The notes beneath the pieces are model-generated. The model saw nothing but the letters and a program-made list of their open reading frames with translations. It had not been told where the DNA came from and searched no databases. Source: Bacteroidales bacterium (GTDB lineage: Bacteria; Bacteroidota; Bacteroidia; Bacteroidales; JAUNSR01). From it: a DNA stretch of 64,000 bases. Where the stretch lies: contig JAUNSR010000003.1 in the NCBI GenBank assembly GCA_030539115.1, positions 25,359-89,358 of the forward strand. The letters are read 5' to 3'. Positions 7,005 through 31,042 of this stretch are shown here, piece after piece; the stretch's first letter is position 1, and every line of letters starts with the position of its first letter. Both the position numbers and the translations under genes were made by a program.

Positions 7005-7062
7005 TTGTTTGTCATTATAATAAACCTGACATTTGAAACTTGAAAAAAGAGCCTGTAATAAT

Positions 7063-7097
7063 GTGCCGGCATTTAATGTGTGAAGATATGCCGGCAC
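7063..7097 (-). terminator. hairpin terminator downstream of the BSP-like gene
   Basis: GTGCCGGCAT-15 nt-ATGCCGGCAC forms a 10-bp GC-rich stem with only a modest T-rich tail on the minus strand. Confidence 0.5.
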
Positions 7098-7162
7098 TTA
7101 ATAAGCATTAATTAAAAAAAAGTGATGAATTCGACAGTGAGATAAAAGAAGAACATTGACAT

Positions 7163-8002: not shown

Positions 8003-8097
8003 TAAATAATTTGTTGTGGAAAAATTGCGCTGTTTGATGGGTGGTAAATATTAATGAATATTTATATCATCATTTTTACCCTCCTGTTTAGTGCAAT

Positions 8098-9558: not shown

Positions 9559-9790
9559 ATTCTCTTTGTTATTAGTTTAAGTGTATCTTTTAAATCTATT
9601 AATATATTTATTTATCTATCATGTAATGAAGATCTCTTTAATAATAATGTGAGGGATTAATCGAATCTAAATTTATCGATTTATTTATCCTTTAAAGTAT
9701 AAAGAGAGTATTAATAGCGTGAATTATGTTTTAATATTAATAGTTTATTCCGGTAAAAATGCCGATAAAACAAAATTTCAGATAATAGAA

Positions 9791-9916
9791 ATCAATAAAT
9801 GTTCTATAAGGATCTGGAAATGCTTTATATGCATCTATAAATATTCTATAGAGATCTACAAATGTTACATATGCATCTATAAATGTTTTTTACTGATCTA
9901 TAAATGTTTAATATGT
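9791..9916. repeat. six tandem 21-bp repeats (consensus ATCTATAAATGTTnTATAnGn)
   Basis: Units start at 9791, 9812, 9833, 9854, 9875 and 9896 with an exact 21-bp period. A degenerate seventh unit follows. Confidence 0.9.
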
Positions 9917-9955
9917 ATTTATTATTTGTTTGATAATAAATGAAAAATCTTCAAT

Positions 9956-10762: not shown

Positions 10763-10769
10763 TTTTATC

Positions 10770-13142
10770 TTAGTTGATGCCCTCGGTAAAAGAATAAGGT
10801 TTTGAATCCCTGTCAATACATCTTTTATAATTAGGGCGGGAACTCATTTCAAACTCGATAACAGCACCATTTATAAGGTCTTGATGAGTAAAATATGACT
10901 TTGAATAAGCCTTTCCATTTAATTTTACCGATTTTATATACCTGTTTTTGTCGCTGACATTGGGAGCTTTAACCACTATCTTGTTGCCATTGTCGAGATT
11001 GACGGAAATAAATGGCAAATATGGAGCTCCTATGACATATTGGTCGGTTCCGGGACAGACTGGATAGAAACCCATAGCGGAAAACAGGTACCAAGCCGAC
11101 ATTTGTCCGCAGTCGTCATTGCCGCATAAGCCGTCAATATTGTTTTTATACATTTTATTCATTACTTCACGAATCCAATACTGCGATTTCCAAGGCTGAG
11201 AACTCCAAGCATAAAGATAAATAATGTGATGGCTCGGCTCATTGCCGTGAACATAGTTTCCCATAAGTCCCTCTTCGGTCACATCTTCAGTATTCTCAAA
11301 GAACTCTTTTGGAAGATGCATCGAGAAAAGAGAATCGAGATTGTTTACAAACTTTTTGTCACCTCCCATAGCATCTATCAACCCGAAAACATCGTGAGGG
11401 ACATAGAAAGAATAGTTCCATGAGTTTCCTTCAATAAAACCTTCGTTATGTGTGTTTAAAAGAGAAAAATTCTCTTTCCATTTGCCGTCTGAGTATTTAG
11501 GACGTGCAAAACCAATATTGTAATCGAAAACATTCCTGTAATTAAGAGCTCTTTTTCCATACTCTTCAGCCATCTCCTTGTTGCCCGCTTTCAAGGCAGT
11601 ATTATAAATGGCCCAATCATCGTAGGAATATTCCAATGTAACCGACGCGGCACTGCCATCCTTGTCAAAAGGGACATATCCAAGAGAGATATAATCTTTA
11701 AGATTTCCGTAATATGGGATTGTAGAGCTGGTTTTCATAGCTGAAAGAGCTTTTGACAAATCTATGTCAGCTCCTTTTGTTATTGCATCGGCTATAACAG
11801 AAACGGCATGGTAGCCGATCATGCACCAATTTTCATTTGCCATGTGCGACCAAACCGGAAGCGCCTTATGAACGCTCTGAGAAGAGTGGGCAAGCATGGA
11901 ATTGACCATATCCTTATTTTTTGATGGATGAAGGATATTCAAAAATGGATGAAAAGCTCTGAAAGTATCCCAAAGAGAAAAGACTGTATAGTTTGTAAAA
12001 TTATCTGCCTGATGAATATTATGATCAAGACCGCGATACTTACCGTCCAGATCCATATAAACAGACGGATTAATCATTGTATGGTATAAAGAGGTGTAAA
12101 ACATTGCCTCCTGGTCGGTTGTACCTTTTATCTCGATGCGTTCAAGTTCATTTTCCCATTTGTTTTGAGTGATTTGAGCAATCTGGTCAAAAGTTTTTCC
12201 ATCTGTTTCCGTCAAATTAAGAAGAGCGCCTTCGGTACTGACTGCTGAAAGAGCGACTTTCACCTCTAACACCTCATCTTTTGACAAGTCGAAATCAAAA
12301 TATGAAACTATCTTGCGGCCTGTAATCTCAGGGAAATTGTTTTCCATCTTGAATTTTCTCCAAAAACCGTTATATAAAGGCTTATCCTTTTCTACATAAC
12401 CGTAGTTTTTAATAGGCTTTGAGAATTTTACGGCAAAATAAGTGTAATTTGTCCTTGCCCAGCCGTTAGTTATTCTATATCCTGTTAAAATTGTATCATT
12501 CTCTACTCTTAAGTTAGCCCAAAGGACTTTCCCGTCATAATTGTAAATGCCATGAACAAGATCCAAAATCAAATGCGAAGGCTTATCTTTTGGAAAAGTA
12601 TATTGATGAACCCCCACTCTTTGAGTAGCAGTCAAACGTGCCTTAATATTATAGTCATCAAGAACAACCTCATAGTATCCGGGAGTGGCTTTTTCCGTAT
12701 TATGAGAAAACCTCGAGCGATATCCATTGTCAGGATTGTCTGAAGTGCCGGGATTTAACTTTAAATCGCCGACAATAGGCATAATAAGAATGTCTCCCAA
12801 ATCTGAATGACCGGTACCGCTGAGATGAGTATGGCTGAAACCGACAATTGTCTTATCCTTATATTGATATCCGGCACAATATTCGTAAACATTCTTTTGA
12901 TAAACGCCATCTACATTGTGAGGAATCGTATCCGTATCAGGGCTTAACTGAACCAAACCAAAGGGGGAGCAGGCGCCGGGAAAGGTATGTCCCATACCGT
13001 TTGTGCCGATTATCGTATTAACCTTTGAAACGACTTTTGAATCTCGGGTCTCAATTTCTTTGTTTATATTATTGGAATATAGATTTCCAAGGAATCCTTG
13101 GGCGATAGGCAAAAGTAAAAGGAATAAGGTTTTTGTTTGCAT
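10770..13142 (-). CDS. GH92 alpha-mannosidase
   Basis: GTNGMGHTFPGACSPFGLVQLSPDT near the N-terminus and a ~790-aa length are typical of GH92. Confidence 0.9.
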   Translation of the reverse strand: MQTKTLFLLLLPIAQGFLGNLYSNNINKEIETRDSKVVSKVNTIIGTNGMGHTFPGACSPFGLVQLSPDTDTIPHNVDGVYQKNVYEYCAGYQYKDKTIVGFSHTHLSGTGHSDLGDILIMPIVGDLKLNPGTSDNPDNGYRSRFSHNTEKATPGYYEVVLDDYNIKARLTATQRVGVHQYTFPKDKPSHLILDLVHGIYNYDGKVLWANLRVENDTILTGYRITNGWARTNYTYFAVKFSKPIKNYGYVEKDKPLYNGFWRKFKMENNFPEITGRKIVSYFDFDLSKDEVLEVKVALSAVSTEGALLNLTETDGKTFDQIAQITQNKWENELERIEIKGTTDQEAMFYTSLYHTMINPSVYMDLDGKYRGLDHNIHQADNFTNYTVFSLWDTFRAFHPFLNILHPSKNKDMVNSMLAHSSQSVHKALPVWSHMANENWCMIGYHAVSVIADAITKGADIDLSKALSAMKTSSTIPYYGNLKDYISLGYVPFDKDGSAASVTLEYSYDDWAIYNTALKAGNKEMAEEYGKRALNYRNVFDYNIGFARPKYSDGKWKENFSLLNTHNEGFIEGNSWNYSFYVPHDVFGLIDAMGGDKKFVNNLDSLFSMHLPKEFFENTEDVTEEGLMGNYVHGNEPSHHIIYLYAWSSQPWKSQYWIREVMNKMYKNNIDGLCGNDDCGQMSAWYLFSAMGFYPVCPGTDQYVIGAPYLPFISVNLDNGNKIVVKAPNVSDKNRYIKSVKLNGKAYSKSYFTHQDLINGAVIEFEMSSRPNYKRCIDRDSKPYSFTEGIN

Positions 13143-13630
13143 ATATATTTATTTGTATGATTTAGCATCAATATCCTTAAAATCCGAATTATATATCTCC
13201 GATATTGAAATCTATAATTGCATGATCTGATTTCTCTATAAAGGAAAAAGATTTTTGGAGGAGCTATAATAATTATGATACATCCCTTTCCCAAAAGAAA
13301 AGATTCAGAAGTAAAAGCTGCCTAAGCGCGAACTATTATTTTTTTTGCATCTTTTAAAACGAAGTTCTTTTAGGAAGCGGGATGACATAAACAACCCTTA
13401 ATCAAAAAGGCTGCATAACAAAAATATATATATATACTTAGTAAGTAAGAATCTTAATTCGTCATAAATGTATAGAATTTAGGTATTCATATAAATAGAC
13501 ACAACTTTGATAAAATAAGACACAAAGAATCAATTATACAATAGACAAATTGTATAGGCTTTATACATGAATTACATATGCAGATTAAGCAAATATTTAT
13601 GCGAGAGACAAATTGAATAAGATTTTTCTG

Positions 13631-16600
13631 CTATGGTTTGTCGGAATTTAATATAGTAGAATCGATTTCACGGTTTGATTCGCGGTAGTTCTTAGGCGTC
13701 ATTCCGTAAATCTTAGAGAAATCCCTGTAAAAGTATGATCGATTTGAAATGCCAACTTTATAAATCACCTCCTGTATTGACAGATTTGTCGTTAAAAGAA
13801 GCTTTGCCGCAAAAGCAAATCTTCTCTTTTTAATAAAATCACCGGGAGAAAAGGAAGAGACATTTTTGAATTTGCGATAGAACGATTGATAAGAGTATCC
13901 CATTTCGCTTGCTATGAAAGCCGCATCCAAATTTCCGTCCGACATATTTTGATCTATCTTGTCAATTACTTTAGAAAGGAATTCAGTATCTTCATGATGT
14001 CTTGGAGTACCGTTATCAATGTCAAAAGCACTTGCAGAGGAATTAAAATATTTTTTTCTATTCTCCATATTAACAATAAGCCTTTCTGTTGTTGCCTGCA
14101 AAAGAGAAAAATCGAAAGGTTTTGTAAAATAAGCATCTGCTCCCGCATTTAATCCGTTAACCTTATCTTCATTGCCGTTTTTGGCAGATATGATAATTAT
14201 TGGAAGATGCTTAAAGAACCTATCCTCCCTGATAATATTGACAAGTTTTATTCCATCAATGCTTCCCGGCATCATAATATCGGTAATTATAAGCCCCGGC
14301 ATCTCCTGTTTTAATATTTCTAAGGCATTCTCACCATTTGAAGCATTTGCTATCCTGTATTTCTGAGAAAGCAAATCGGTAAGCATGAATATTATCTCTT
14401 TATTGTCATCAACCAAAAGAATTAAAGGCTTTTGATTGACAGAGGAATAATTATTATCGATTGAACCATTATTTGAACCTGATATTAAAGAGTTGTAATC
14501 TTTATGAGTTATTTGCTCATTTGATTGAGCAGGCTTCTCATTATTAAAACCGGAGGCAGAATTGTCAGACATTTCTATAACATCATTTCCTTTATTGCCA
14601 ATCAAATCATTTTCACTGCCGCCAATAGTTACGGAGGCGACAGGCTCATCAAAAACACAACGGTCTTTAGCTTTCGGATCACATTGAGCATTAGGAATTG
14701 CAACTTCAAAACAGGCATATCTGTTCTCTTTACTTTCAACACTGATAGTTCCACCAAGAAGCTTGACCATACTCCAGCAAATATGCAGCCCAAGGCCATT
14801 TTGATACCTGAACTCATCATTCTTCTTGGAAGAAAAATTATCAAGGACAACAAATCTATTGAAAACCGATTTCAATTCTTCGCTTTTAATGCCGTGTCCG
14901 GTATTAAAAACTTTAATCAGCAGGCTATTTTCATCATTAACAGAGATTGATATTCTTATCTCACCATCATTATTTACATACTTTACAGCATTTGATACAA
15001 GATTAATGATTATTTTATTCAGACAAAGAGAATCGGTATTCCATAAAATGGTATCAGGGGCTTCAATATTGAAAGAGATATTTTTTCTGTCGGTGATATC
15101 GGAAAATTGATACTTAATAGACTCTACAACCTTGTTTATATTAAGTTCCTCAATATTTTTGGTGTACTGACCTAACTCCTCAAATCTTTGAATATTGATT
15201 ACCTCCTGAATAAGGCTTTGCAGTTTGTCGGCATTAACCTTAAGCAGATTTGTATATTTAAGAACAAAATTATCTGCATTTTCATAATTTAAAATCCTAT
15301 CACAAGGTCCCTGAATAAGAGTCAACGGAGTAAGGAACTCATGAGTAATGTTGGTAAAGAACTTCATTTTTGCCTCATAAAGTTCTGTTTTCTGCTTCTC
15401 CTCCATTTCAGACATCCTTTTTAAAGCCTTTTTCTTTTGATATCTTATAAAGATTATAAAGCAAATAAAAATTATCAGAGCAATAAGAGAGTCAAATATG
15501 ATTAAAACTATTGTGGTTTTATACCAAGGAGGCAGAATCCTGATGTTTATGGAATAGATTTGAGAATCGTTATCATAAACATCCTTTTTGTATTTAACCT
15601 TTAGGACATAATTGCCTGATGGTAAATTCTCAAAAGCAGCGTTGTTAACCCTGTTGATATTTACCCATTCGTCATTATAATTATCAAGCTTGTAGGAATA
15701 CTCTATATTATCGCCTCTAAGATAATCTATGGCAATAAAATTCACAGTAAAACTGTTCTGCTTGTTTTTTAAGACAATTGTTTTACTATCCTCTTTTGGA
15801 TCTATATAAGAGTTTATGGGCACACGCATCCCGCCAATATTAAGACCTGTAAACTGGACCGGGATATTAATATTATTTTCTACGTCCTTTGACAAATCGA
15901 TCTTTACAAACCCATCTACACCACCAAATAAAAGACAATCGGAGTTTTCAGACTTTAAATAAGCGTCATCACTGAATTCAAAAGTCTCAAGGCCGCGGTA
16001 ATTAAAGTAATTATGAAATATTCCATTGTCAGGATTGTATTTTGTCAGCCCCTTATTGGTGCTCAACCAAAGACAACCGGTATTATCAGTAAGTATGCCA
16101 TGAATCATTTCATTTAAAAGGCCGCTTCTTTGATTGTAAACAGATACATAGGAGCTTCCATCCTTGCTTGTTTCAATTTTCAGCATTCCGCCGCTTGTGC
16201 CGAAGAAAGTTACTTTATCCGAATAGGGGCATATTGAAAGAATATCGTCCGACATCGAAAATGAGGAGAAATTTGTAAGAATCTGTTTATAATTTCCTGT
16301 ATTCTTATTATATCTTATCACTCCATAACCACGGCTTGCAAACCAAAGATTATCTTTATCGGCAGCCTCAATGTCAAAAAATTCATCTATTTCATGTTCC
16401 CCCTCATTAAAAATTATTTGATCAATATCTTTGGCGTTTATTTCATATCCAAGATTTTCAATTTTCACCTTTATAATGCCATCTCTCTGAGTAGCCAGCC
16501 ATAAAACATTGTTTTCTTCAAAATAAATATCATGAATGCCATTTAAAAGAGAGTCGTCATTTGTTTTTAACTTATGGATCAGCCTGTCTTCAAAGGAATA

Positions 16601-17869
16601 ATAGTATAATCCTTTTTCATCTCCACCTATCCAAATAAGGTTTAAATCTTTGTTTTCCTTTAAGGCAAAAATTTGAGTCAAACCCAATGAGGAGCTTTTA
16701 TCAAAAACAGAGACTGAATTTATCGGTATGTTTCTTTCAGCAAGATTCCTGTAGTCTGCTATTCTTATCAAGCCGTCACCTTTTGTTCCTATCCAGAGAT
16801 TACCCAATCTATCTTCCAAAAGTGTTCTCAAAGGTTTTCTAATATTTATTGGCAAAGAAGATGACAGTGTTGTAGAAAAAAGGGAGTATCTTTTTGTGTA
16901 ACTTATCAATCCCCGTCCGTCTGATCCCGCCCATAATATGTCCTGATTTCTGTCTTTATACAGACAAAAGATTCCTGAATTGATATCTACAACCTCTTCA
17001 CCGTAATTTTTCTCAGGCACCAAACGAATAAGTCCGCTTGATTTAAATGAAATAAATACACTATTGTCAAATTCCACTATTGAAGATACTTTCCCATATT
17101 TAGATGTGAGCAATGAAACATTTTTTAAAAGCTTCTTCTGTCGATTATTATAGTCATACTCAAACAATTCACCATTTTCTGTTATATAAAAGACGTTGCC
17201 TCCATCCTTAAAAACATATTCCGCCCTATCATCACCTAAAAAATCATCCTCCTTTACATCATAATCCAACTTTTCCTGATTTATTGAATCATGAAAATAT
17301 ATTTTATACACCTTGCTCTTGGTAAAAATCCACATAATATCATTTTCATCAAAGAACGCAGACATTATTTCTGAGGGATCGATCTTTAGAAAAGGATACT
17401 CATTAAATTTCTTGTTTGAAATGATATATTTGTCTATTGTCCCCTTGGAAGTGATAACAAATGAATATTGTTTGCCATTTGTTACCAATCGATATGGGTC
17501 CTTATAGTCATTAAAACTTTCGATTATTTTTTCATTTTCAATAGAATACTTATGAAGTCCCATAAATGTGGATATCCAAAGACAATTGTCATCACAATCT
17601 GATATGGAATGAATTATCCCACTCTGGATATTCATTTTGTCAAAATAGATTTGCTCAATAAAATTCCCGTCATATTTATTCATCCCATCATAGGTCCCTA
17701 TCCAAAGGAAACCTTTGTTATCCTGAAAAACAGACAATACGGCACTATGAGAGAGGCCGCTTCTAATATCAACATTATTGCTTTGATATGCAGTGGCTGA
17801 TTCAGAATAACCATTTAAAGAGTTAAAGAATAATATAGTTAACAGGAATAGACAGATAAAATACTTCAT
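13631..17869 (-). CDS. hybrid two-component system sensor kinase/response regulator (HTCS) with AraC-type output
   Basis: 1412 aa. Periplasmic propeller-type repeats, a TM helix (TIVLIIFDSLIALIIFICFIIFI), H-box FFTNITHEFLTPL, an HATPase region, a receiver (ILLVDDNKE..ITDIMMPG) and a C-terminal AraC helix-turn-helix. Confidence 0.9.
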   Translation of the reverse strand: MKYFICLFLLTILFFNSLNGYSESATAYQSNNVDIRSGLSHSAVLSVFQDNKGFLWIGTYDGMNKYDGNFIEQIYFDKMNIQSGIIHSISDCDDNCLWISTFMGLHKYSIENEKIIESFNDYKDPYRLVTNGKQYSFVITSKGTIDKYIISNKKFNEYPFLKIDPSEIMSAFFDENDIMWIFTKSKVYKIYFHDSINQEKLDYDVKEDDFLGDDRAEYVFKDGGNVFYITENGELFEYDYNNRQKKLLKNVSLLTSKYGKVSSIVEFDNSVFISFKSSGLIRLVPEKNYGEEVVDINSGIFCLYKDRNQDILWAGSDGRGLISYTKRYSLFSTTLSSSLPINIRKPLRTLLEDRLGNLWIGTKGDGLIRIADYRNLAERNIPINSVSVFDKSSSLGLTQIFALKENKDLNLIWIGGDEKGLYYYSFEDRLIHKLKTNDDSLLNGIHDIYFEENNVLWLATQRDGIIKVKIENLGYEINAKDIDQIIFNEGEHEIDEFFDIEAADKDNLWFASRGYGVIRYNKNTGNYKQILTNFSSFSMSDDILSICPYSDKVTFFGTSGGMLKIETSKDGSSYVSVYNQRSGLLNEMIHGILTDNTGCLWLSTNKGLTKYNPDNGIFHNYFNYRGLETFEFSDDAYLKSENSDCLLFGGVDGFVKIDLSKDVENNINIPVQFTGLNIGGMRVPINSYIDPKEDSKTIVLKNKQNSFTVNFIAIDYLRGDNIEYSYKLDNYNDEWVNINRVNNAAFENLPSGNYVLKVKYKKDVYDNDSQIYSINIRILPPWYKTTIVLIIFDSLIALIIFICFIIFIRYQKKKALKRMSEMEEKQKTELYEAKMKFFTNITHEFLTPLTLIQGPCDRILNYENADNFVLKYTNLLKVNADKLQSLIQEVINIQRFEELGQYTKNIEELNINKVVESIKYQFSDITDRKNISFNIEAPDTILWNTDSLCLNKIIINLVSNAVKYVNNDGEIRISISVNDENSLLIKVFNTGHGIKSEELKSVFNRFVVLDNFSSKKNDEFRYQNGLGLHICWSMVKLLGGTISVESKENRYACFEVAIPNAQCDPKAKDRCVFDEPVASVTIGGSENDLIGNKGNDVIEMSDNSASGFNNEKPAQSNEQITHKDYNSLISGSNNGSIDNNYSSVNQKPLILLVDDNKEIIFMLTDLLSQKYRIANASNGENALEILKQEMPGLIITDIMMPGSIDGIKLVNIIREDRFFKHLPIIIISAKNGNEDKVNGLNAGADAYFTKPFDFSLLQATTERLIVNMENRKKYFNSSASAFDIDNGTPRHHEDTEFLSKVIDKIDQNMSDGNLDAAFIASEMGYSYQSFYRKFKNVSSFSPGDFIKKRRFAFAAKLLLTTNLSIQEVIYKVGISNRSYFYRDFSKIYGMTPKNYRESNREIDSTILNSDKP

Positions 17870-21149: not shown

Positions 21150-22364
21150 CTATTGAAAAGGTGCAAGAAACAACATTATATCGCTCCAAGGTAAATTAAA
21201 ATGCTCACCAACAAATTTATTTACAATCTTCCCGTTATATATATATACTCCGTTTCTAAAGTTCCTCTCTTTTCTCATATGGTCATTTATATTCCCTGAA
21301 TCTGCTATTTTTATCAACAGAGGCAGGCAATGATTGCTTAAAGCTATGGATGTGGTTCTTGCCACCCTTGAACTAATGTTCGGAATGCAATAATGTATTA
21401 CTCCGCACTGTTCATAGAGAGTCTCTTTCATTGAATCAGGACAGACAGAAGTTTCAAAGCAACCACCTTGGTCAATACTTAAATCGATTATCAGAGCACC
21501 TTTCTTCATATTTGCTATCATATCTTCCGATACAATAAATTTTTTTTCCCCATTTTCAAATCTAAGAGTACCAATAACAATATCTGCAGACTTAAAAGCA
21601 TTTATCAAAACGTTCGGATGAAGAGTTGATGTGAATGTCGATGGAGAAACAAAAGTTTGTATTTCTCTAAGCAAATCAATATTATTGTCAAATACCTTAA
21701 CTAAAGCGCCCAAAGCATCGGCAGTTCTTGCCGCCTCTCTTCCCGCTCTCCCTGCTCCAATGATTACTATTTCCGTAGGAGTAACTCCCGGACATCCCCC
21801 AAGCAAAATTCCTTTTCCGCCATTGGTATTAGTCAGAAGTTCTGCCGCCAGCACAATTGCCGTCTTACCTTCAATTTCAAGTATTGAATTAATTATAGAA
21901 TGCTTATTTTGTGAGTCTGATATTAGTTCAAGAGAAACTGCATTTATTCTCTTTTCTGTGATTTTCTCAAGTGCTTCTTTTGAGAACATAGAAAGCTGCA
22001 GGAAAGAAAGAAATGTAGATTTGTTTTTCATCATTTTCACCTCGTTTGCACTTGGTGGAGCAATTTTAATAACGATATCACACTGCCAAATTTCTGCAAT
22101 ATCTTCACAAACCAAGGCTCCTGCCTCACTGTAAGCCAGATCCGAATAAAAGACATATTCTCCTACTCCTTTTTCAATAAAAATTTTGTGACCCATTGAA
22201 GTCAATATTTTCACTGATTCGGGAGTTAAAGGCACTCTTCTTTCAAACTCTCCATTTTCTTTAGGGATTCCAATGGTTAAGAAAGAATTTTTCTCCTCCT
22301 TAATATACAATTTTTCCTGTGGAACAATCGATTCTGAAGCGAAAGTCATAAGTGTCTTTTTCAT
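21150..22364 (-). CDS. AlaDH/PNT-family NAD(P)-dependent dehydrogenase (alanine dehydrogenase-like)
   Basis: IGIPKENGEFERRVPLTPESV N-terminal domain and Rossmann motif VIIGAGRAGREAA. Confidence 0.7.
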   Translation of the reverse strand: MKKTLMTFASESIVPQEKLYIKEEKNSFLTIGIPKENGEFERRVPLTPESVKILTSMGHKIFIEKGVGEYVFYSDLAYSEAGALVCEDIAEIWQCDIVIKIAPPSANEVKMMKNKSTFLSFLQLSMFSKEALEKITEKRINAVSLELISDSQNKHSIINSILEIEGKTAIVLAAELLTNTNGGKGILLGGCPGVTPTEIVIIGAGRAGREAARTADALGALVKVFDNNIDLLREIQTFVSPSTFTSTLHPNVLINAFKSADIVIGTLRFENGEKKFIVSEDMIANMKKGALIIDLSIDQGGCFETSVCPDSMKETLYEQCGVIHYCIPNISSRVARTTSIALSNHCLPLLIKIADSGNINDHMRKERNFRNGVYIYNGKIVNKFVGEHFNLPWSDIMLFLAPFQ

Positions 22365-22574
22365 TTGTATATATTTTATTTTCCTAACCGTTACCTCTAA
22401 GGTACAAATGCGCCATTTATATACCTTTTGTGGGGTATCTCTTCTTTTGGTGAGTTATGGCGGTTTCATTTGTATATATTTTATTTTCCTAACCGTTACC
22501 TCTAAGGTACAAATGCGCCATTTATATACCTTTTTGGGGGCATCTCATCTTTTGGTGAGTTATGGCGTTTTCAT
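22362..22574 (-). repeat. start-codon-abutting repeat, copies C1 and C2 (tandem doublet, 105-bp period)
   Basis: CAT (ATG on the gene strand) recurs at 22362-64, 22467-69 and 22572-74. The two units are near-identical to each other and roughly nine-tenths identical by eye to the units at 26193. Confidence 0.95.
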
Positions 22575-22686
22575 TTCATTCTTTAATTTATTTAATTAAA
22601 GCATTTATATGCCAATACAAAAAGCGTTTGTAAAGGTTATATCAGGTAATAATTTAAAGCATGGTCATTTATTAAAGATTGGAATA

Positions 22687-23220
22687 TCAATCGTAATCTT
22701 TAAGCAATGAACAGAGTTTGTTTGTTGCAGCCTCGATTTGTTTATAATCGTCCAACTCGTTTGCATCAAAAATCAATTTTGCCGCCTCATAGGCTGATTC
22801 TCTTTTGTTAAGGTTCTCCTCTATAAAAGAATACAATTCCTCATCAGTTTTATCCTTCAATATTGGTCGGCTTGCTTTTGCTATCTTAAGTCTCTTAAAA
22901 AGCACAGGCACACCGGTCTTCAGATATATCGTTACACCTTGTTGATTCATATACTCCTTGTTGTCAAAAAAACAAGGCACTCCTCCTCCCGTTGCAATTA
23001 CCACATCTTCAAACTCACCAACCTCATGAAGGGCTTTTCTTTCAATCTCTCTAAATCCATCTTCGCCCTTTTCTTGGAAGATTTCATTAATGGTTTTTCT
23101 GTAGCGGCTCTCTATATATAAATCAAGGTCAATGAATGAAAGCTCCATTTTTTGAGAAATAAACTTTCCCAATGTTGTCTTTCCTGCCCCCATATAACCT
23201 ATAAGAAAATATCTTTTCAT
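22687..23220 (-). CDS. aroK: shikimate kinase
   Basis: P-loop LIGYMGAGKTTLGK, ~177 aa, and GGG motif ATGGGVP. Confidence 0.9.
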   Translation of the reverse strand: MKRYFLIGYMGAGKTTLGKFISQKMELSFIDLDLYIESRYRKTINEIFQEKGEDGFREIERKALHEVGEFEDVVIATGGGVPCFFDNKEYMNQQGVTIYLKTGVPVLFKRLKIAKASRPILKDKTDEELYSFIEENLNKRESAYEAAKLIFDANELDDYKQIEAATNKLCSLLKDYD

Positions 23221-23806
23221 TTATTATAAATATGTTTTTTACATCAGGATATAAATATGACATTTATAAACCTTCTATCTTTTATCTCCACTTTTATTTG
23301 CTAATGCAATATCTATTAGCCACTTGGGTAAAACTAAGGTTGTAAATATGGCATCATAAATAGGCAATATTTTCAATAAAACTAAAGCATTACAATTTAA
23401 GCTGCAATAATAAATCTTTTAAATATCTATGGTTTGTATTTTGTTTAACCTTCAGATGAAATACTACCGAGATTAATAAATATGCATTTATTATTTATTT
23501 TAGCAAATTTCTAATTTTTTTTAGCTGCCCAACAATATTTACCCTCTTTTAACATCTAAATAAACTGTTTGTTTCAAATTTCATAAAATCCGAATGTCCC
23601 GATATCCCTTTGATAATAATTTTCAATATATGTGAACAGAATAATAAACAGTGACATTTATAAAACTCTTGATATAAATATAAACTTTGATGATGCGCCA
23701 TAAAAGAGGTATGAAATTTTTCTGACCAATAAATTAAATTATTCTTTGAGGATAAACTATATACCTGTTTGTTCCATTCTTATTATTAAATTTGTCAAAA
23801 CAAAAA

Positions 23807-24451
23807 ATGTATTCTATGGCTAATTCTAAATATTACGTTGTTTGGGAGGGCTTTGCTCCCGGAGTTTATGATTCATGGGAGGAGTGCAGGCAGCAAATAG
23901 AGGGATATAAGAATGCCAAATACAAAAGCTTTTCAACAAAGGAAAAAGCCGTCGATGCTTTCCGTGCCGATTATTCCGAGCACATCGGCATTCTTGACGG
24001 TGTTGCCAAAGCTCTTTCGGCTACTGCTCCCGTCAAATCAAACTACATCATCGAATCGCTTGCTGTTGATGCCGCATGCAGTGGAAATCCCGGGAAAATG
24101 GAGTATAGAGGTGTTTATGTCCGTACAGGTGAAGAGATTTTTCGAATAGGTCCTTTAGATGACGGCACAAACAATATAGGAGAATTTCTTGCTATTGTGC
24201 ACGGCATATCGCTTCTAAAACAAAAAAATATTTTACTTCCAATCTATTCTGACAGTGTAAATGCAATGTTGTGGGTAAAAAACAAGAAATGCAGAACAAA
24301 ACTGGAAAAAACGCCTCGCAATCAAAAAATATTTGAAATGATTGAACGCGCCGAAAAATGGCTTGAAAACAACACCTATTCAACAAAGATAATGAAATGG
24401 GAAACCAAGCAATGGGGTGAAATTCCCGCTGATTTCGGAAGAAAGAAATAA
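23807..24451 (+). CDS. rnhA: ribonuclease HI with N-terminal hybrid-binding (viroplasmin-like) domain
   Basis: KYYVVWEGFAPGVYDSWEEC..YKSF followed by an RNase H core (VDAACSGNPG..EYRG, NNIGEFLA, IYSDS). The track start at 23792 is TTG; the first ATG is at 23807, with another at 23816. Confidence 0.85.
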   Translation: MYSMANSKYYVVWEGFAPGVYDSWEECRQQIEGYKNAKYKSFSTKEKAVDAFRADYSEHIGILDGVAKALSATAPVKSNYIIESLAVDAACSGNPGKMEYRGVYVRTGEEIFRIGPLDDGTNNIGEFLAIVHGISLLKQKNILLPIYSDSVNAMLWVKNKKCRTKLEKTPRNQKIFEMIERAEKWLENNTYSTKIMKWETKQWGEIPADFGRKK

Positions 24452-24491
24452 GGTTATAATGTTTATAAAGTTCGCTTAAAAAAAGATGTAT

Positions 24492-25217
24492 CTATTTAAG
24501 CGAACTTTTCATAAAATATTGTCTCTCCTCATCAGACAATTTCTCAATTGCATATCTCAATGATGTACGGGAAAGCCTTTTTTTGTTTTCTTCAAGATAA
24601 TCCAATAAAAGCTCCTTATCCTTTTTCCCAACTTCACGGAGCATCCATCCAACAGCTTTTCTTATTAAATCATGAGGATGAGATATTAATATATCACTAA
24701 GAGCAAGAGTGTCCTTATAATCATATTCCCTTATTATTGTCCAAGTGGAAACGATGGCTATCCTATTTTGCCACAAATTCTCACTCTTGGCATAGTCATA
24801 CAATATTGTCCTGTCTTTGTCTTTAAGCCAATATCCAAGAATCTTTGGAGCGGAAAGATCTACCAAATCCCAATTATTTGCCTTATGAGAATTTAAAAGG
24901 TAGAAATCAACTATCTCTTCTTGTTTTGAAATATTCTTTTTATTTTTAGAGTAAAGAGTAACAAGAATCAAAAAACCGCACAGTCTAACTTCATGATAAG
25001 GGCTGTCAATCAACTTTTGGATCTCTTGAAAAGAAAGCCCCAATGATTCCTTTACCACCATCTTCACCTCCGGATTTTTTAGACCAAGAAAAATATCACC
25101 TTCGCCATACTCACCTTTTCCTGTTTTAAAAAATCGAGATAAAATCTTTGCCTTATTCTCATCGGCAAACATGCAAAGAGCCTCAATGACATCATCCGAT
25201 TTTAGATTCTCTTTCAT
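24492..25217 (-). CDS. DNA alkylation repair protein (AlkD-like HEAT-repeat)
   Basis: The NWDLVDLSAPKILG and AVGWMLREVGK motifs are typical of the PF08713 family. Confidence 0.75.
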   Translation of the reverse strand: MKENLKSDDVIEALCMFADENKAKILSRFFKTGKGEYGEGDIFLGLKNPEVKMVVKESLGLSFQEIQKLIDSPYHEVRLCGFLILVTLYSKNKKNISKQEEIVDFYLLNSHKANNWDLVDLSAPKILGYWLKDKDRTILYDYAKSENLWQNRIAIVSTWTIIREYDYKDTLALSDILISHPHDLIRKAVGWMLREVGKKDKELLLDYLEENKKRLSRTSLRYAIEKLSDEERQYFMKSSLK

Positions 25218-25235
25218 ATCAATAATTATTAAAAA

Positions 25236-26195
25236 TTAATTTACCCTTGTAATTTTACCCCCTTCAAAGAAATTTATTATGTTTTCCGAAACGCAGTAAG
25301 CCATTTCATTTCTTACATCAAAAGTTTGAGTACCGATATGAGGAGTTAATACCACATTGTCAAGTTCAAGCAGTTCATCGCTCACCTTATGTCCAAATTC
25401 AAAGACATCAAGTCCTGCTCCGTAAATAGTCTTATTCTTCAGAGCCTTGGCAAGAGCCGCCTCATCCACCAAAGGTCCACGAGCTGTATTGATAAGAATT
25501 GCCGTTTTCTTCATTTTCTCAAGCACTTTCTCATTGATAATATGATGAGTTTCATTTGTATGAGGTGCATTAATGGAAACGACATCAGAAGTCGTTATCA
25601 ATTCTTCAAAAGAAACATATCTTGCATTAAGAAGTTTTTCCTGCTCCTCGCTTATTGGCTTGTGATTATGATAAACAATCTTCATGCCCGAAGCAATCGC
25701 CCTTCTTGCCAATGCTTTTCCAATTCTTCCCATACCGAATATACCCAGCTGTTTTCCATATAGAGAATAGCCCAAGTTATCAAGTAAACCCCATTCTATT
25801 TTGCCTGGTATTCTTAAGTTTCTGTCACATTCGCTTATTCTCCTTGCAACAGAAAGCAAAAGCCCCATAGCCATATCGGCAGTGGGTTCAGTGACAGGGT
25901 CGGGTGTATTTGTAACCACAACACCCTTTTGAGTTGCATAGGGAATATCTATATTATCATATCCTACAGCATAGTTTGATACAATCTTTAGTTTTGTGGC
26001 TTTGTCTAAAAGATTCTTGTCTACCGGGAAATTATACATAGACTGAAGTGCATCATACTGGTCTATCACCTCCATAACCTCATCATAAGAAAAGCATTCT
26101 CTGTCAGCAGGCGGAAAAGTCACATCATATTTTTCAATAAGTTTGGAATATCCTTCACGAAACATATTATATGTTACAAGCACTCTCTTTTTCAT
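25236..26195 (-). CDS. D-isomer-specific 2-hydroxyacid dehydrogenase (glyoxylate/hydroxypyruvate reductase-like)
   Basis: Rossmann motif GIFGMGRIGKALA and the catalytic region NTARGPLVDE..TPHIG. Confidence 0.85.
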   Translation of the reverse strand: MKKRVLVTYNMFREGYSKLIEKYDVTFPPADRECFSYDEVMEVIDQYDALQSMYNFPVDKNLLDKATKLKIVSNYAVGYDNIDIPYATQKGVVVTNTPDPVTEPTADMAMGLLLSVARRISECDRNLRIPGKIEWGLLDNLGYSLYGKQLGIFGMGRIGKALARRAIASGMKIVYHNHKPISEEQEKLLNARYVSFEELITTSDVVSINAPHTNETHHIINEKVLEKMKKTAILINTARGPLVDEAALAKALKNKTIYGAGLDVFEFGHKVSDELLELDNVVLTPHIGTQTFDVRNEMAYCVSENIINFFEGGKITRVN

Positions 26196-26405
26196 TTGTA
26201 TATAATTTAATTTACTAACCGTTACCTCTAAGGTACAAATGCGCCATTTATATACCTTTTGTAAGGTATCTCATTTTTAGGTGAGTTATGGCGATTTCAT
26301 TTGTATATAATTTAATTTACTAACCGTTACCTCTAAGGTACAAATGCGCCATTTATATACCTTTTGTGGGGTATCTCATTTTTAGGTGAGTTATGGCGAT
26401 TTCAT
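26193..26405 (-). repeat. start-codon-abutting repeat, copies D1 and D2 (tandem doublet, 105-bp period)
   Basis: CAT recurs at 26193-95, 26298-300 and 26403-05. I see only two differences between the units (GTAAGG vs GTGGGG). Confidence 0.95.
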
Positions 26406-26709
26406 TTACAGTTTATTTAAGTTTTAAAAATAAGGTAAATCAGTTTTCTCAACAAGACTTACTGTGTCTGCCAAGCACAACAATCAGCCATAAAACCAAA
26501 TTAAAGATTGATGTATCTTCAATTATATGGCAAAGCTAAAATATTTATAAAAAACAAATAAGCTATATGGTGAATATATTTATCCAAAAAAATGAATCAT
26601 TTTGAATGATGGTATTAAAAATTATAATTTTAACATTTTATCAACAATTAATTTATCATTTCATGCTTAATAAGTATATTTAAAATCATTTTAACAATAT
26701 GCTTAAATT

Positions 26710-27942
26710 ATGGTTTTAAATTATATTTGGATAGGCTTCTTCTTAATTGCTTTTATTATAGCTGTTGCAGCAAGCATTTTCTCAGGAAACATCAATATAT
26801 GGTCTGAAATAATGAATTCCACATTCTCGTCGGCAAAAACAGCCTTTGAAATATCGTTGGGGCTAACCGGAGTGCTCTCTCTTTGGCTTGGTCTAATGAA
26901 AGTTGGCGAAAAAGGCGGCGTAATAAGTCTTTTTTCAAAATTTGTTTCCCCTCTTTTTAGGAAAATATTCCCGGGCATTCCGGAAAACAACCCAGCCACA
27001 GGTGCAATTTTTATGAACCTTTCCGCAAACATGCTCGGTCTTGACAACGCTGCAACTCCTTTGGGATTAAAAGCCATGCAGGAGATGCAGAACATCAATC
27101 CCGATAAAACCACTGCAAGCGATCCGATGATTATGTTTCTTGTGCTGAATACTTCAGGGCTCACCATAATTCCAATAAGCGTTATGATGTATCGCGCCCA
27201 GCTTGGGGCAATGAATCCTTCTGATGTTTTTCTTCCAATATTAATTGCGACATTTATGTCCACTCTTGCAGGACTTCTCATTTGTTGTATAAGACAAAAG
27301 ATCAACATTTTTGATAAAGTTATTATTGGCTCTATTGGAACTCTTTGCGCTGTGATCGGAGCAATAATATTTGCCGTGAGCCGAATGGATCAGCAGACCA
27401 TAACAACCTACTCCTCCTTAATTTCCAATGCTATCCTTTTCACAATAATCTGCGGGTTTATTTTTGCAGGTGTAAAAAAGAGGATAAACGTTTACAATGC
27501 CTTTATTGAGGGAGCCAAAGAGGGATTTCAGACTGCAGTAACTATTATTCCCTATTTGGTTGCTGTGTTGGTTGGAGTTGGCGTCTTCCGCGCCTCCGGA
27601 GCTATGGATTTTATGACAGACACCTTTGCTTATATTTTCAGCGCCATTGGAATCCCCGCTGATTTTGTCGGAGCTTTGCCTACTGCCTTTATGAAGCCTC
27701 TTAGTGGCAGTGGTGCAAGGGGTATGATGGTCGATGCGATCAACACCTATGGAGCAGACTCATTTGTAGCTCGAGTGTCGTCAACTATACAGGGAGCTAC
27801 TGATACCACATTCTATATAGTTGCTCTATATTTCGGCAGCGTGGGTATTTCAAAGACAAGATATGCGGTTAGTGCAGGTTTAATTGCAGACTTTGTTGGA
27901 ATAATATCCGCTATTTTAGTTTCATATTTGTTTTTTGGATAA
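26710..27942 (+). CDS. nucleoside-recognition-domain membrane protein (SpmA/SpmB-like fusion)
   Basis: 410-aa polytopic membrane protein. MVLNYIWIGFFLIAF and MLGLDNAATPLGLKAM are typical of the spore-maturation/Gate-domain family. Confidence 0.7.
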   Translation: MVLNYIWIGFFLIAFIIAVAASIFSGNINIWSEIMNSTFSSAKTAFEISLGLTGVLSLWLGLMKVGEKGGVISLFSKFVSPLFRKIFPGIPENNPATGAIFMNLSANMLGLDNAATPLGLKAMQEMQNINPDKTTASDPMIMFLVLNTSGLTIIPISVMMYRAQLGAMNPSDVFLPILIATFMSTLAGLLICCIRQKINIFDKVIIGSIGTLCAVIGAIIFAVSRMDQQTITTYSSLISNAILFTIICGFIFAGVKKRINVYNAFIEGAKEGFQTAVTIIPYLVAVLVGVGVFRASGAMDFMTDTFAYIFSAIGIPADFVGALPTAFMKPLSGSGARGMMVDAINTYGADSFVARVSSTIQGATDTTFYIVALYFGSVGISKTRYAVSAGLIADFVGIISAILVSYLFFG

Positions 27943-27970
27943 CTTTGATATAAACTAAAATCTTAAGATT

Positions 27971-28405
27971 ATGGCTATAAATTTTTACGCACAGGATGTA
28001 ACTCTTCCAAATATAAAAAAGAATGAGACAAAAGAATGGATAAAAAAGGTCGCTCAAAAATATGATATGAAGGTTGGCGATGTTTCTTACATCTTTTGTA
28101 ATGACGAGAAAATTCTTGAAGTAAACAACGAATTTTTAAAGCATGACTACTATACAGATATTATAACTTTCGATTATACAGAAGGCAATAAAATAGGAGG
28201 TGATATCTTTATCAGCCTCGACACAGTGAAGAGCAATGCAGAACAATTTCAGCAGGAATATGATCAGGAAATACATCGTGTAATTATCCATGGCATTCTT
28301 CACCTTTGCGGCATAGACGATCAGTCTCCGGAACAAAGAGCCAATATGATCAGTAAGGAGAACGAAGCTCTCGAGCTTTTAAAAGAGATGACTCAGGAGA
28401 ATTAA
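27971..28405 (+). CDS. ybeY: rRNA maturation RNase YbeY
   Basis: Zinc motif HGILHLCGIDD in a 144-aa protein. Confidence 0.9.
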   Translation: MAINFYAQDVTLPNIKKNETKEWIKKVAQKYDMKVGDVSYIFCNDEKILEVNNEFLKHDYYTDIITFDYTEGNKIGGDIFISLDTVKSNAEQFQQEYDQEIHRVIIHGILHLCGIDDQSPEQRANMISKENEALELLKEMTQEN

Positions 28406-28648
28406 TATTCATCATTATCTGTTTAAAGGAATATATTATATATCCGTTTTTGCTTTTATTGCTGTTATTTAAATTTACCCGTTGCTTCACATATAAACCT
28501 TATTAAAACTAAAACCGTTTTCTTAATAGTCAATACAGCAATCTATTACTGACACTTTTTAATTTTACTTGTCGAACCTTTAATTTCGATTGTCAAAAAA
28601 ATTAAAATACTTAAGTTATTGTAAAATTTTATTATAATAAAGTTCAGT

Positions 28649-28693
28649 AAACACTCTAATATATTTAATGATATATTAGAGTGTTTTTATTTT
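28649..28693 (+). terminator. orphan strong hairpin terminator in the ybeY-mnmG spacer
   Basis: AAACACTCTAATATAT-TTAATG-ATATATTAGAGTGTTT is a perfect 16-bp stem followed by TTATTTT. It lies about 245 nt after the ybeY stop. Confidence 0.6.
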
Positions 28694-28925
28694 TATGAAA
28701 ATCAAAATTACAAAACAACTGATGAAAAAATTTCAGTTGAGAGTCTTATTAATAATATGCTTTGAAACGATCAATAAATGAAAGCTGAGCCACATTATTA
28801 ATAAAATAAAAAACGCCAGTTTAAACAGAACCTAAACATTATAAATGAGTTAATAATAATCTCTTTTAGGGCAATTTAAGTTGATTTGGGTTAACGGCAC
28901 AAAAGTTATTGTATCTTTGCATAAG

Positions 28926-28998
28926 ATATGCTTCACCTCATTAATGACAATTTGAAAGCTTACTCTTTCAATTGTTTATTGAATTGGGTTTGCAATAT
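28926..28998 (+). ncRNA. conserved hairpin RNA/leader element, copy 1 (upstream of mnmG)
   Basis: Preceded by the -7 box TATCTTTG (28912-28919). About 73 nt fold into a long interrupted hairpin (apical GAAAG/CTTTC). Homologous to 51137-51211 with compensatory pair changes. Confidence 0.45.
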
Positions 28999-29167
28999 AT
29001 TGGCATCATTATTAAATTTAGACATCTAAAGTTTAAAGTTTCAGTCATTAATTATCATACAATCCAAAACACATATAGTGATAGATGGAAAAGGCAAACA
29101 AGTCAATTTGCCTGAGATAATTCATGTAAAAAATAAAAAAGGTAATAAAAGAAAAGTATCAAAATAA

Positions 29168-31042
29168 ATGGATTTTAAATATGACGTTATAGTAGTTGGG
29201 GGTGGTCATGCGGGCTGTGAAGCGGCATGTGCTTCAGCTAACTTAGGTTCAAAGACCTGTTTGATTACAATGGACATGAATAAGATTGGCCAGATGAGCT
29301 GTAATCCCGCTGTTGGAGGTATAGCCAAAGGTCAGATTGTTCGCGAGATTGATGCATTGGGAGGATATATGGGAATTATCAGTGACAGGACTGCCATTCA
29401 ATTCAGAATGCTTAACCGTTCTAAGGGTCCTGCCATGTGGAGTCCGAGAAGCCAAGCCGACAGAGCAAAATTTATTGATACTTGGAGAGAGATGATTGAC
29501 AGTACGCCCAATCTAAATGTTTGGCAGGACACCGTCATAGAACTTATTCTTGAGGACGGCAGGGTCAAAGGACTTAAGACTTCAATGGGAGTGACTTTCC
29601 ATGCAGACTCGGTGGTTCTCACTTCAGGAACTTTCATGAACGGTCTTATGCATTTCGGCCGCACAAAGCTGCCGGGAGGAAGGATTGCAGAACCTGCATC
29701 TTATGGCATTTCCGATCAATTGAAGAATGCCGGAATTATCACCGGAAGAATGAAAACAGGAACTCCGGCAAGAATTGACGGAAGAAGCATCGACTTTTCA
29801 TTGGCTGAAAAAAATGAAGGCGACAGCGATTTTCATAAATTTTCATATCTGAATTATCAGACTCCGATTTTGAAAGCCAGACCCTGCTGGACAATATATA
29901 CAAACGAAGAGTGTCATGAGGTTTTAAGAAGAGGACTTCCCGATTCGCCTCTTTATAATGGGCAGATCCAAAGTATCGGACCCCGCTATTGTCCAAGCAT
30001 CGAGACAAAGATTGTAACTTTCCCTGACAAGACAAGACATCAGCTTTTTCTTGAGCCGGAGGGTGAGACAACAGAGGAATACTACATAAATGGATTTTCT
30101 TCTTCTCTTCCTTTGGATATACAGCTTGAGGCTTTAAAGACAATACCTGCTCTTAGAAATGTGGTTATTTATCGTCCCGGCTATGCAATAGAATATGATT
30201 ATTTTGATCCAACTCAACTTAAACATTCTCTTGAAACAAAAGCTGTCGGGGGTCTTTTCTTTGCAGGGCAAATAAATGGAACCACGGGTTATGAAGAAGC
30301 GGGCGGTCAAGGGTTAATTGCAGGTATCAATGCTCACCTTAAAGCTCACAAAAAGGATCCGTTTATTCTTGGACGTGAAGAGGCTTACATAGGAGTCTTG
30401 ATTGATGATCTTGTAACCAAAGGTGTGGATGAACCATACAGAATGTTTACTTCCAGAGCAGAGTATAGAATCCTGCTTCGTCAGGATGATGCTGACATGA
30501 GGCTTACCGAAAAATCATATAAACTTGGATTGGCTTCAAGAGAGAGATACGATCTTCTTGTAGAGAAGAAAGAACATCGAGACAGAATAATCGAGTTTTG
30601 CCGAAACTATTCCATCAAGGCTTCTTATGTAAATGACGAGCTTGAGAAATATAATACTGCAACATTAAAAGACGGATGCAAACTCATAAGTCTTGTTGTA
30701 AGACCTCAGCTTTCGCTTGAAATAATCAGTTCCTTTGTCCCCGCTCTTAAGGCTGAAATAGAAAAGATACCAAACAGGAAAGAGGAAATAATTGAAGCAG
30801 CAGAGATTTTGATGAAGTATGAAGGCTATATTGAAAGGGAAAAGATGATCGCCGAAAAGATTTCAAGACTTGAAAATATCCCTATTAAGGGCAGATTCGA
30901 ATATGATTCAATCAAGTCGCTCTCTACTGAAGCAAGACAAAAGCTGACCCGAATTGACCCGGAGACAATTGGTCAGGCATCAAGAATTCCCGGAATTTCG
31001 CCAAGTGATATAAATATATTATTAATTTTACTGGGAAGATAA
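29168..31042 (+). CDS. mnmG: tRNA uridine-5-carboxymethylaminomethyl(34) synthesis enzyme MnmG (GidA)
   Basis: [19 protein letters not shown] motif, GPRYCPSIE, and 624 aa. Confidence 0.95.

Follow-up and report, generated by a model that had tools for sequence, protein, structure and literature searches.

A repeat of about 100 nt joined to the start codons of unrelated genes in uncultured Bacteroidales, a candidate non-autonomous mobile element

Correia elements of Neisseria are non-coding, intergenic, multi-copy sequences of ~100 nt that can alter the expression of neighbouring genes and cause assembly breaks. MITEs (miniature inverted-repeat transposable elements) have terminal inverted repeats and target-site duplications (TA in the case of Correia) and insert in either orientation. 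Small inserts are also known within genes: Rickettsia palindromic elements (RPE) are translated in frame, and mitochondrial 'byp' elements are bypassed by the ribosome. Elements of the IS200/IS605 family move by peel-and-paste single-strand transposition (PMC3597680), while putative mobile promoters are near-identical upstream sequences found before non-homologous genes, within or between genomes (Nijveen, Matus-Garcia and van Passel 2012, PMC3575422). The FopS small RNAs (sRNAs) are encoded by independent trans-acting genes with sigma-ABfr promoters and terminators and are deposited in Rfam (PMC11697453). Here we analyse a 64-kb stretch of DNA (the window; GenBank contig JAUNSR010000003.1) from an uncultured Bacteroidales bacterium, an ordinary chromosomal region of ~35% GC, in which a repeat of about 100 nt ends on the start codons of five unrelated genes. 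On a balance that tips modestly in its favour, we read this unit as a small, non-coding, non-autonomous and orientation-specific mobile element that inserts scarlessly at start codons.

The window contains seven intact units at five loci (A to E), each terminating in its own gene's ATGAAA (Table 1). The 29-nt core of the unit, GGTATATAAATGGCGCATTTGTACCTTAG, has exactly seven matches in the window when up to three mismatches are allowed (minus strand, 1485, 6932, 22397, 22502, 26228 and 26333; plus strand, 41974) and none in 100 dinucleotide-preserving shuffles. TRF reports a 105-nt period with 2.1 copies at both 22359-22576 (95% matches) and 26190-26407 (98% matches), and the CAT/ATG triplets fall at 22362, 22467 and 22572 at locus C, at 26193, 26298 and 26403 at locus D, and at 41930 and 42035 at locus E. 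In a seven-way alignment the similarity runs from approximately AAATGAAA to the terminal ATGAAA, with none directly beyond. An ATGAAA also precedes six of the seven units; copy A has ATTCAA at this position. The block AGAGGTAACGGTTAG is common to C, D and E (subfamily 2) and absent from A and B (subfamily 1). Pfam places the five downstream genes in the TonB-dependent receptor, CotH, AlaDH/PNT, 2-hydroxyacid dehydrogenase and nitroreductase families. An earlier note, made from the DNA letters, had described the seven units at five start codons with their coordinates and 105-bp spacings, the end of similarity right after ATGAAA, the left ATGAAA of six units, the two subfamilies and the gene identities, all of which were confirmed by the core search, TRF, the alignment and Pfam. 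Its view that this is a discrete repeat joined to unrelated genes via ATGAA(A), and not a duplicated gene 5' end, is likewise supported. All the conditions that the note had named as refuting it went in its favour, with regard to the position of gene-blind copies at start codons, to gain and absence at orthologous loci, and to known families.

Table 1. Repeat units and associated features in the window (unit lengths are ATG to ATG)
Feature	Position	Strand	Remark
Unit A, 104 nt, subfamily 1	1452-1561	-	Terminal ATG (1452-1454) is the TonB-dependent receptor start
Possible second unit, decayed, adjoining A on its upstream side and in tandem register with it	1566-1632	-	nhmmer E 0.45, model positions 33-99 collinear; weak
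Unit B, 97 nt, subfamily 1	6905-7004	-	Terminal ATG (6905-6907) is the CotH-like start; left ATGAAA 6999-7004
Unit C1, 105 nt, subfamily 2	22362-22466	-	Terminal ATG (22362-22364) is the AlaDH/PNT start
Unit C2, 105 nt, upstream tandem copy	22467-22574	-	Left ATGAAA 22569-22574
Spacer, shikimate kinase stop to C2	22575-22686	-	ATGA ~20 nt past the stop is the AlaDH start position in relatives
Decayed unit adjoining the shikimate kinase start (ATG 23218-23220)	23218-23294	-	nhmmer match 23231-23294; remainder to the ATG read by eye
Unit D1, 105 nt, subfamily 2	26193-26297	-	Terminal ATG (26193-26195) is the 2-hydroxyacid dehydrogenase start
Unit D2, 105 nt, reference unit	26298-26405	-	Left ATGAAA 26400-26405
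A/U-rich tail of D2, ending TATATACAA-ATG	26298-26338	-	Serves as new translation-initiation region
Octamer CATTTGTA of D2	26339-26346	-	Follows the junction; complements right-end TACAAATG, internal TATAAATG and often the left flank
Predicted three-way junction in D2	26347-26398	-	Stems conserved, loops variable, no compensatory changes
D2 stem P1, CGCCAT with ATGGCG	26393-26398 with 26347-26352	-	Predicted
D2 stem P2, CTCA with TGAG	26387-26390 with 26375-26378	-	Predicted
D2 stem P3, ATACC with GGTAT	26370-26374 with 26357-26361	-	Predicted
Mini-ORF of D2, ATG AAA TCG CCA TAA (Met-Lys-Ser-Pro-stop)	26391-26405	-	Displaced start closed by the element's TAA
Native Bacteroidetes -7 box TAGCTTTG of locus D	26531-26538	-	Upstream of the insert; conserved in L009 and L012
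Unit E, 105 nt, subfamily 2	41930-42040	+	Left ATGAAA 41930-41935; terminal ATGAAA 42035-42040 starts the exported nitroreductase

To extend the comparison beyond the window we used 8-21 kb pieces of related genomes (loci with L numbers below); overall the unit measures 94-105 nt. The last ATG of the unit is the start of a real gene at 13 of 15 loci, counting L035 and remnants, and at 11 of the 12 loci with intact or near-intact copies it opens an open reading frame (ORF) of 143 to >683 amino acids. Five loci, in two metagenome-assembled genomes (MAGs), came from a scan of GTDB genomes by the core DNA pattern alone; the source genome of the window was not among the matches. Copies found in this gene-blind way still adjoin start codons: four of the five are exact fusions, with ORFs of 143-539 amino acids, and in the fifth the unit's last ATG lies 38 nt upstream of ruvB. 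All 12 ORFs tabulated after units begin with ATGAA, compared to 10 of 38 other genes of the window. Of 329 ATGAA sites in the window, 15 serve as start codons and another 35 lie between genes without being starts; by our calculation, the chance of 13 out of 14 falling on start codons, drawing among the 15 and the 35 non-disruptive sites, is ~1.6e-6. The start-codon bias is far from random, even if selection purges insertions inside genes. Over the 64-kb window and 464 kb of loci, no significant copy was intragenic or oppositely oriented, and intact copies are all co-oriented with a preceding ATGAA or a sequence decayed from it.

The genes downstream of the units (TonB-dependent receptor, CotH, AlaDH, 2-hydroxyacid dehydrogenase, nitroreductase, SIS, mmdC, nrdG, EEP, C69 peptidase, ruvB and DNA alkylation repair) are functionally unrelated and form no coherent set. 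Nine of the 14 tabulated loci follow a co-directional gene, and several are operon-internal, with the unit lying between mmdA-mmdD and mmdC-mmdB, between nrdD and nrdG, between susC-susD-x and EEP, and between shikimate kinase and AlaDH-POR.

Orthologous loci in related species are found both with and without the unit. The shikimate kinase-AlaDH gap is -8 to +49 nt in five relatives (L007, L009, L012/L013, L025 and L035); a sixth, L026, has 191 nt, and all six lack the unit there. In the window the gap is 322 nt and contains two units. The N-terminus of the window AlaDH matches those of its orthologues residue for residue, which places the end of the unit at the orthologous start codon. The SIS gene provides the second and clearer case. 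At its empty sites (L007, L012 and L025), the native -7 box TACTTTTG is followed by a leader of ~30 nt, and the distance from AAATACTTTTG to ATGAAA is 40-43 nt. L035-L038 have an ATG at the same offset, 41, then diverged unit sequence of exactly 97 nt, and finally ATGAAA with the rest of the gene; in L009 an ATGAAA at offset 41 is followed by a 170-nt insert, consisting of 73-75 nt of unassignable sequence and an intact unit, and then by ATGAAA and the gene. The unit is positioned between the old ATG and the new ATGAAA, and sister species have the empty site. In a neighbour-joining tree of AlaDH, a single-protein tree, each occupied species has an empty sister (P0007-P0005 and P0004-P0002), which means either two independent hits on one start codon or repeated precise loss. 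The repeat is accordingly an insertion and not a conserved promoter. Nitroreductase orthologues were considered as a further empty-site control and set aside, their contexts being non-syntenic.

The family is old. The decayed copy at 23231-23294 of the window is matched by nhmmer with an E-value of 0.025 in the whole window and 0.0014 in upstream regions, and a decayed piece of the element lies ~100 nt upstream of shikimate kinase, upstream of its -7 box, in L012/L013 (9322-9374) and L014 (2019-2071); together, these remnants suggest an old insertion near shikimate kinase. They are also what one would expect of an ancient conserved leader that was inherited vertically and lost at most loci with no mobility at all. 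Such a history would require many precise losses, each restoring the leader of 40-43 nt, and conflicts with the intact copies at non-orthologous loci and with the derived subfamily-2 block common to three unlinked loci, making it exceedingly improbable. No canonical TAnnTTTG lies in the 450 nt scanned upstream of shikimate kinase in the window (region 23221-23791, minus strand), though the gene diverges from its neighbour.

The architecture of the unit shows how a gene can survive this event. Insertion takes place in one orientation at extreme gene starts, at or just past ATGAA. The old start codon remains at the left edge, which reads ATG AAA nCG CCA TAA, so that the first bases of the element (nCG CCA TAA) end the old frame after four codons; Met-Lys-x-Pro-stop is intact in 9 of 13 copies and the stop is at codon 5 in 12 of 13, being TAG in L009 and displaced to codon 8 in L003. 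The right end brings an A/U-rich leader and a new ATGAA to which the remainder of the gene is connected in frame, and hence protein length is kept and insertion is tolerated even inside operons. Bacteroidia initiate translation without Shine-Dalgarno pairing, and A at positions -6, -12 and -13 is a positive determinant of initiation (Baez et al. 2019, PMC6847099). Among 13 copies, the tail has A at -6 in 13, at -13 in 12 and at -12 in 10; it has C, which is suboptimal, at -3 in 11. No unit carries an ORF of its own, and sequence scans detected neither a sigma-70-like site nor a terminator in the units. The Bacteroidetes -7 box TAnnTTTG is found in none of 14 copies and, where a native one is present (locus D, L009, L012 and L035), it lies upstream of the insert. 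By these sequence criteria, the unit is no recognisable promoter cassette and replaces the translation-initiation region. The possibility that TGGCGCATTTGTACC and GGTAAC form a sigma-54 (GG-N10-GC) or an ECF-like site was rejected on inspection, as the fit fails and the sequences are not common to both subfamilies.

These observations bear directly on the idea, raised in the earlier note, of a portable promoter that carries a transcription start to any gene it precedes. The unit does share the operational definition of a putative mobile promoter, a highly similar upstream region before non-homologous genes (PMC3575422). Furthermore, loci A, B and E lie downstream of possible terminator hairpins and have no canonical -7 box within 450 nt upstream, and some promoter is therefore needed there. 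However, the unit differs from putative mobile promoters in lacking canonical sigma sites, in being fused base for base to the start codon, and in having defined ends, tandem arrays and positions downstream of native promoters or inside operons; its only TTTG is at a variable distance from the ATG (33 or 43 nt). We consider a promoter cassette quite improbable, and this part of the earlier proposal is not supported.

Folding of the single strand, as RNA or DNA, predicts a three-way junction formed by P1 (CGCCAT/ATGGCG), P2 (CTCA/TGAG) and P3 (ATACC/GGTAT). The right-end TACAAATG, which is complementary to the octamer CATTTGTA beyond the junction, takes in the start codon. The internally deleted L012 copy retains a closing helix of 9-10 bp. 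Compensatory, two-sided changes were seen at none of 23 pairs among 13 intact copies, with the shuffle control not exceeded, and the RNAalifold covariation term is +0.38, the sequences being too alike for a strong covariation test. The hairpins probably have a role, which could be played in RNA or in single-stranded DNA or, alternatively, as half-sites for a protein. A hammerhead-like core was rejected by inspection, since GAUGAG is not conserved (GUUGAG, GUGGAA, GCUGAG and GUCGGG occur in its place).

The predicted fold also underlies the chief alternative, in which the unit is a leader RNA that regulates the host gene in cis (as a translational switch, a thermometer or something like a riboswitch) and has spread by recombination because it is useful. 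In this case the junction would be the sensor, and CAUUUGUA would pair with one of two UACAAAUG sequences, the upstream one at the start of the mini-ORF or that of the gene itself, so that the start codon is hidden or exposed. The RNAalifold consensus indeed consists of P1-P2-P3 plus CAUUUGUA paired to the start-codon octamer; 89% of cells pair, compared to 21-47% after a shift of the partners by 1-3 columns; the folds of several single copies surpass those of shuffles (z -2.9 to -3.5); and one-sided changes are often G-U in the sense strand. Three diverged copies (L012, L035 and the shikimate kinase remnant) show a G-C to A-U change between the internal and terminal octamers, a change that is expected anyway from GC-to-AT decay. 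Repression by base-pairing at the start codon is established in Bacteroides for the FopS sRNAs, and with FopS/GibS the unit has in common that it is a multicopy Bacteroidales family for which start-codon pairing is the proposed or established mode of control (PMC11697453); unlike FopS, it has no promoter or terminator, lies in cis and has no Rfam match. Against a leader RNA stand the lack of compensatory changes noted above, the absence of a common function among the downstream genes, and the decay of upstream and old copies. Strong start-codon sequestration was likewise rejected: the predicted accessibility of the initiation region is 0.62 versus 0.54 for other window genes (p = 0.31), an ordinary value that is not lower than theirs. 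We consider a host leader RNA unlikely as the explanation of the family; a regulatory RNA role, possible yet unsupported, would be compatible with a mobile element. The shared regulatory leader that was also suggested earlier may be real, with no covariation support and with ordinary start-site accessibility.

Returning to the mobile-element reading, several lines of evidence show or strongly indicate that copies multiply within a genome and that old copies decay in situ. The derived subfamily-2 block is common to the unlinked loci C, D and E, which indicates copying within the genome. Tandem arrays are present at C, D and L001, and possibly at A; in L001 (~5843-5943) the middle is masked by a run of N, and there are apparently three units before mmdC, the exact number being uncountable. 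The decayed sequence directly upstream of A would explain why this unit has no left ATGAAA. A 94-nt spacer upstream of C2 was examined as a further decayed unit and rejected, since 61 of 1000 shuffles scored at least as high. By our estimate from alignments, intact copies at non-orthologous loci are ~85-90% alike, and the AlaDH proteins of the species are 60-65% identical; the likeness of intact copies across diverged species, together with the decay of old and upstream copies, suggests that the sequence is conserved via propagation and not through host function.

Copies might instead mark the junctions of gene gain or rearrangement, the unit serving as an integron-like recombination site or as a substrate for homologous recombination between repeats. 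The 2-hydroxyacid dehydrogenase gene, the CotH-GH-HTCS block and the TonB-dependent receptor gene, which all follow copies in the window, are absent from the syntenic region of relatives, as this would predict. However, AlaDH, SIS, nrdG and mmdC, all ancestral and conserved in position, have acquired a unit without gene gain, no second site is present at the far end of the inserted blocks, and repeats promote rearrangements anyway; we regard this possibility as very doubtful. As an observation in its own right, the CotH-BSP-GH125-BSP-GH92-HTCS block (4856-17869) and the 2-hydroxyacid dehydrogenase gene (25236-26195) are missing from the syntenic region of six related species, and both have element copies at their upstream edge.

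How the unit compares with described mobile DNA constrains how it might move. It resembles Correia elements and MITEs in being ~100 nt long, multi-copy, non-coding, intergenic and assembly-breaking, but there is no inverted repeat between its ends. The earlier description of the unit as Correia/MITE-like therefore fits its behaviour and fails on the defining terminal inverted repeats, whose absence, along with that of a nearby transposase, the same note had reported correctly. A MITE reading via an internal inverted repeat (TACAAATG..CGCCAT with ATGGCG CATTTGTA) and TA flanks was rejected because the left arm is not conserved in the outermost copies. Like RPE and byp elements, it would be a small selfish insert at a coding sequence that leaves the gene product functional; unlike them, it closes the old frame and provides a start codon of its own, from which translation begins again. 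In contrast to REP, BIME and REPIN sequences (GC-rich palindromes of 20-40 nt with a conserved 5' tetranucleotide, mostly found at gene 3' ends or between convergent genes), it is ~100 nt long, AT-rich and located at gene 5' ends. We found no bacterial repeat described as rebuilding start codons on insertion.

Among the closest parallels are IS200/IS605 elements, PATEs and REP/RAYT systems, with which the unit shares the lack of terminal inverted repeats and a strictly oriented insertion beside a fixed sequence of 4-5 nt. As in IS200/IS605-type elements, it has hairpins inside its ends, an internal guide-like complement to end and target, and a size compatible with a single-strand circle, and precise excision would explain the empty sister sites; the tandem arrays and the possible precise loss add to the resemblance to peel-and-paste transposition. 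Unlike in these elements, the right end repeats the target ATGAA and is not a different cleavage site, the last strong hairpin is 33-45 nt and not ~10 nt from the right end, and the complementarity is of 8 nt and not 4 and does not lie 5' of a hairpin foot. The comparison with PATEs is similarly split: the unit inserts 3' of a specific pentanucleotide (ATGAA; a tetra- or pentanucleotide in PATEs) in one orientation, but it does not have subterminal hairpins at both ends with guides (~19 nt left, ~10 nt right), since P1-P3 lie 2-26 nt from the left end with nothing comparable within 33-45 nt of the right end. To our knowledge, start-codon insertion has not been reported for the IS200/IS605 family. 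Given this geometry, and with no TnpA or RAYT gene in the window or the pieces of relatives examined, we do not assign the unit to that family.

A mechanism can nevertheless be proposed for such an element. Two strongly conserved stretches, 16 nt at the left and 29 nt in the centre, which comprise P1-P3 and the octamer CATTTGTA, would be recognised by an enzyme acting in trans, with CATTTGTA matching the element ends and the target TACAAATG. A single-strand HUH-type transposase of the peel-and-paste kind would be the best-fitting candidate mover; a site-specific recombinase is also possible, and one recognising TAYAAATG half-sites would be an equally open option. The start-codon bias would arise jointly from an extended target (A-rich sequence plus ATGAA) and from purifying selection, which would remove insertions that fail to rebuild a gene, and tandem arrays may form either by insertions that regenerate their own target or by slippage between flanking direct repeats.

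Several observations weigh against this interpretation. With 329 ATGAA sites in the window, the 5-nt target alone cannot explain start-codon specificity. ATGAA(A), always the same sequence, is present on both sides of the unit at nearly all loci, so the exact cut site cannot be fixed and a target duplication is indistinguishable from a carried end. The right end is without the close subterminal hairpin of IS200/IS605 ends, and the extra 73-75 nt of the L009 insert have no significant similarity to the unit. The block common to the subfamily could also be the product of gene conversion between copies already present. There is no transposase or integrase in the 64-kb window or in the 8-kb flanks of L001-L005, and no longer parent element in these same genome fragments. 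Finally, no empty and occupied alleles within one species were seen for unit E in four samples.

A more specific version of the mobile-element reading, which we put forward tentatively and place on the unlikely side, is that the repeat represents a novel class of mobile DNA, one that homes site-specifically to the starts of translation via an internal guide, CATTTGTA, held in the three-way junction. The guide would recognise TACAAATG, common to the element ends and the A-rich start sites of Bacteroidales, either by base-pairing in RNA or single-stranded DNA or through one protein for which these sequences are repeated half-sites, and the element would insert after ATGAA as a self-contained cassette of stop, new leader and new start codon.

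The repeat family is rare and confined to a clade of uncultured Bacteroidales. The closest homologue of the window AlaDH is only 65% identical, and the gene order of the window mostly matches that of related MAGs. JGI metagenome scans with different patterns retrieved no copies, and IMG/VR scans gave chance matches to the pattern only; with no match to the repeat in plasmid and phage collections either, a phage or plasmid origin is not supported. A query with the antisense open frame across the C units, aimed at gene-caller artefacts on other contigs, had no match. Nor is the unit a known RNA family: Rfam 15 gave no match at gathering score for the whole window and chance-level matches only for three copies at E-values up to 10. 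The organism is present in four samples (SRR24915786, SRR31749841, SRR31749859 and SRR31749862), and unit E was found in all four. The independent short-read assemblies from these samples (L039-L042) begin, at base 1, at the identical base inside unit E, and the L006 assembly begins at base 1 inside unit C, breaks that identify the unit as a multi-copy repeat. In L034 (ENA contig NODE_9206, ~70-130), an Illumina adapter-like ACACTCTTTCCCTACACGACGCTCTTCCGATCT lies just upstream of AlaDH, and the upstream flank of that contig is hence an artefact.

Other features of the window deserve mention. Between the GH125 and BSP genes (9785-9922) there are six copies of approximately ACATTTATAGAT at 21-nt spacing (two helical turns), a few kb from a hybrid two-component regulator (13631-17869); by its sequence this looks like an array of regulator binding sites. 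Short AT-rich intergenic tandem repeats with a 21-nt period also occur at 23486-23525 and 49704-49800. A small His-rich membrane ORF (1711-2055, minus strand) lies directly upstream of the TonB-dependent receptor, with a terminator-like hairpin after it at ~1660-1690, and may encode an accessory of this receptor. A ten-codon ORF, MADCCAWQTQ, in the locus D leader (26459-26491, minus strand) occupies the place of an 83-amino-acid TSCPD gene in L009 and may be a remnant. The sign of the GC skew flips within 24000-30000, near 26-28 kb, at the point of divergent gene orientation and with mnmG/gidA nearby. A replication origin as the cause of this strand pattern was rejected: DnaA boxes match no more often than by chance, and the coding strand is probably all that the skew reflects.

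Sister species with and without the unit on the same gene are a natural experiment on leaders, upstream mini-ORFs and expression. If the homing reading is true, a selfish element would be able to insert in a compact genome without killing genes, by targeting the start codon, and the recurrent assembly breaks at gene starts in these MAGs would be explained. Such an element would also be a lead to an enzyme whose target specificity is unusually useful. Each insertion would be a scarless swap of the initiation region that could be co-opted to retune translation, also in operons, and would thereby provide the Bacteroidia, which lack Shine-Dalgarno-based initiation, with a natural means of exchanging their translation-initiation regions.

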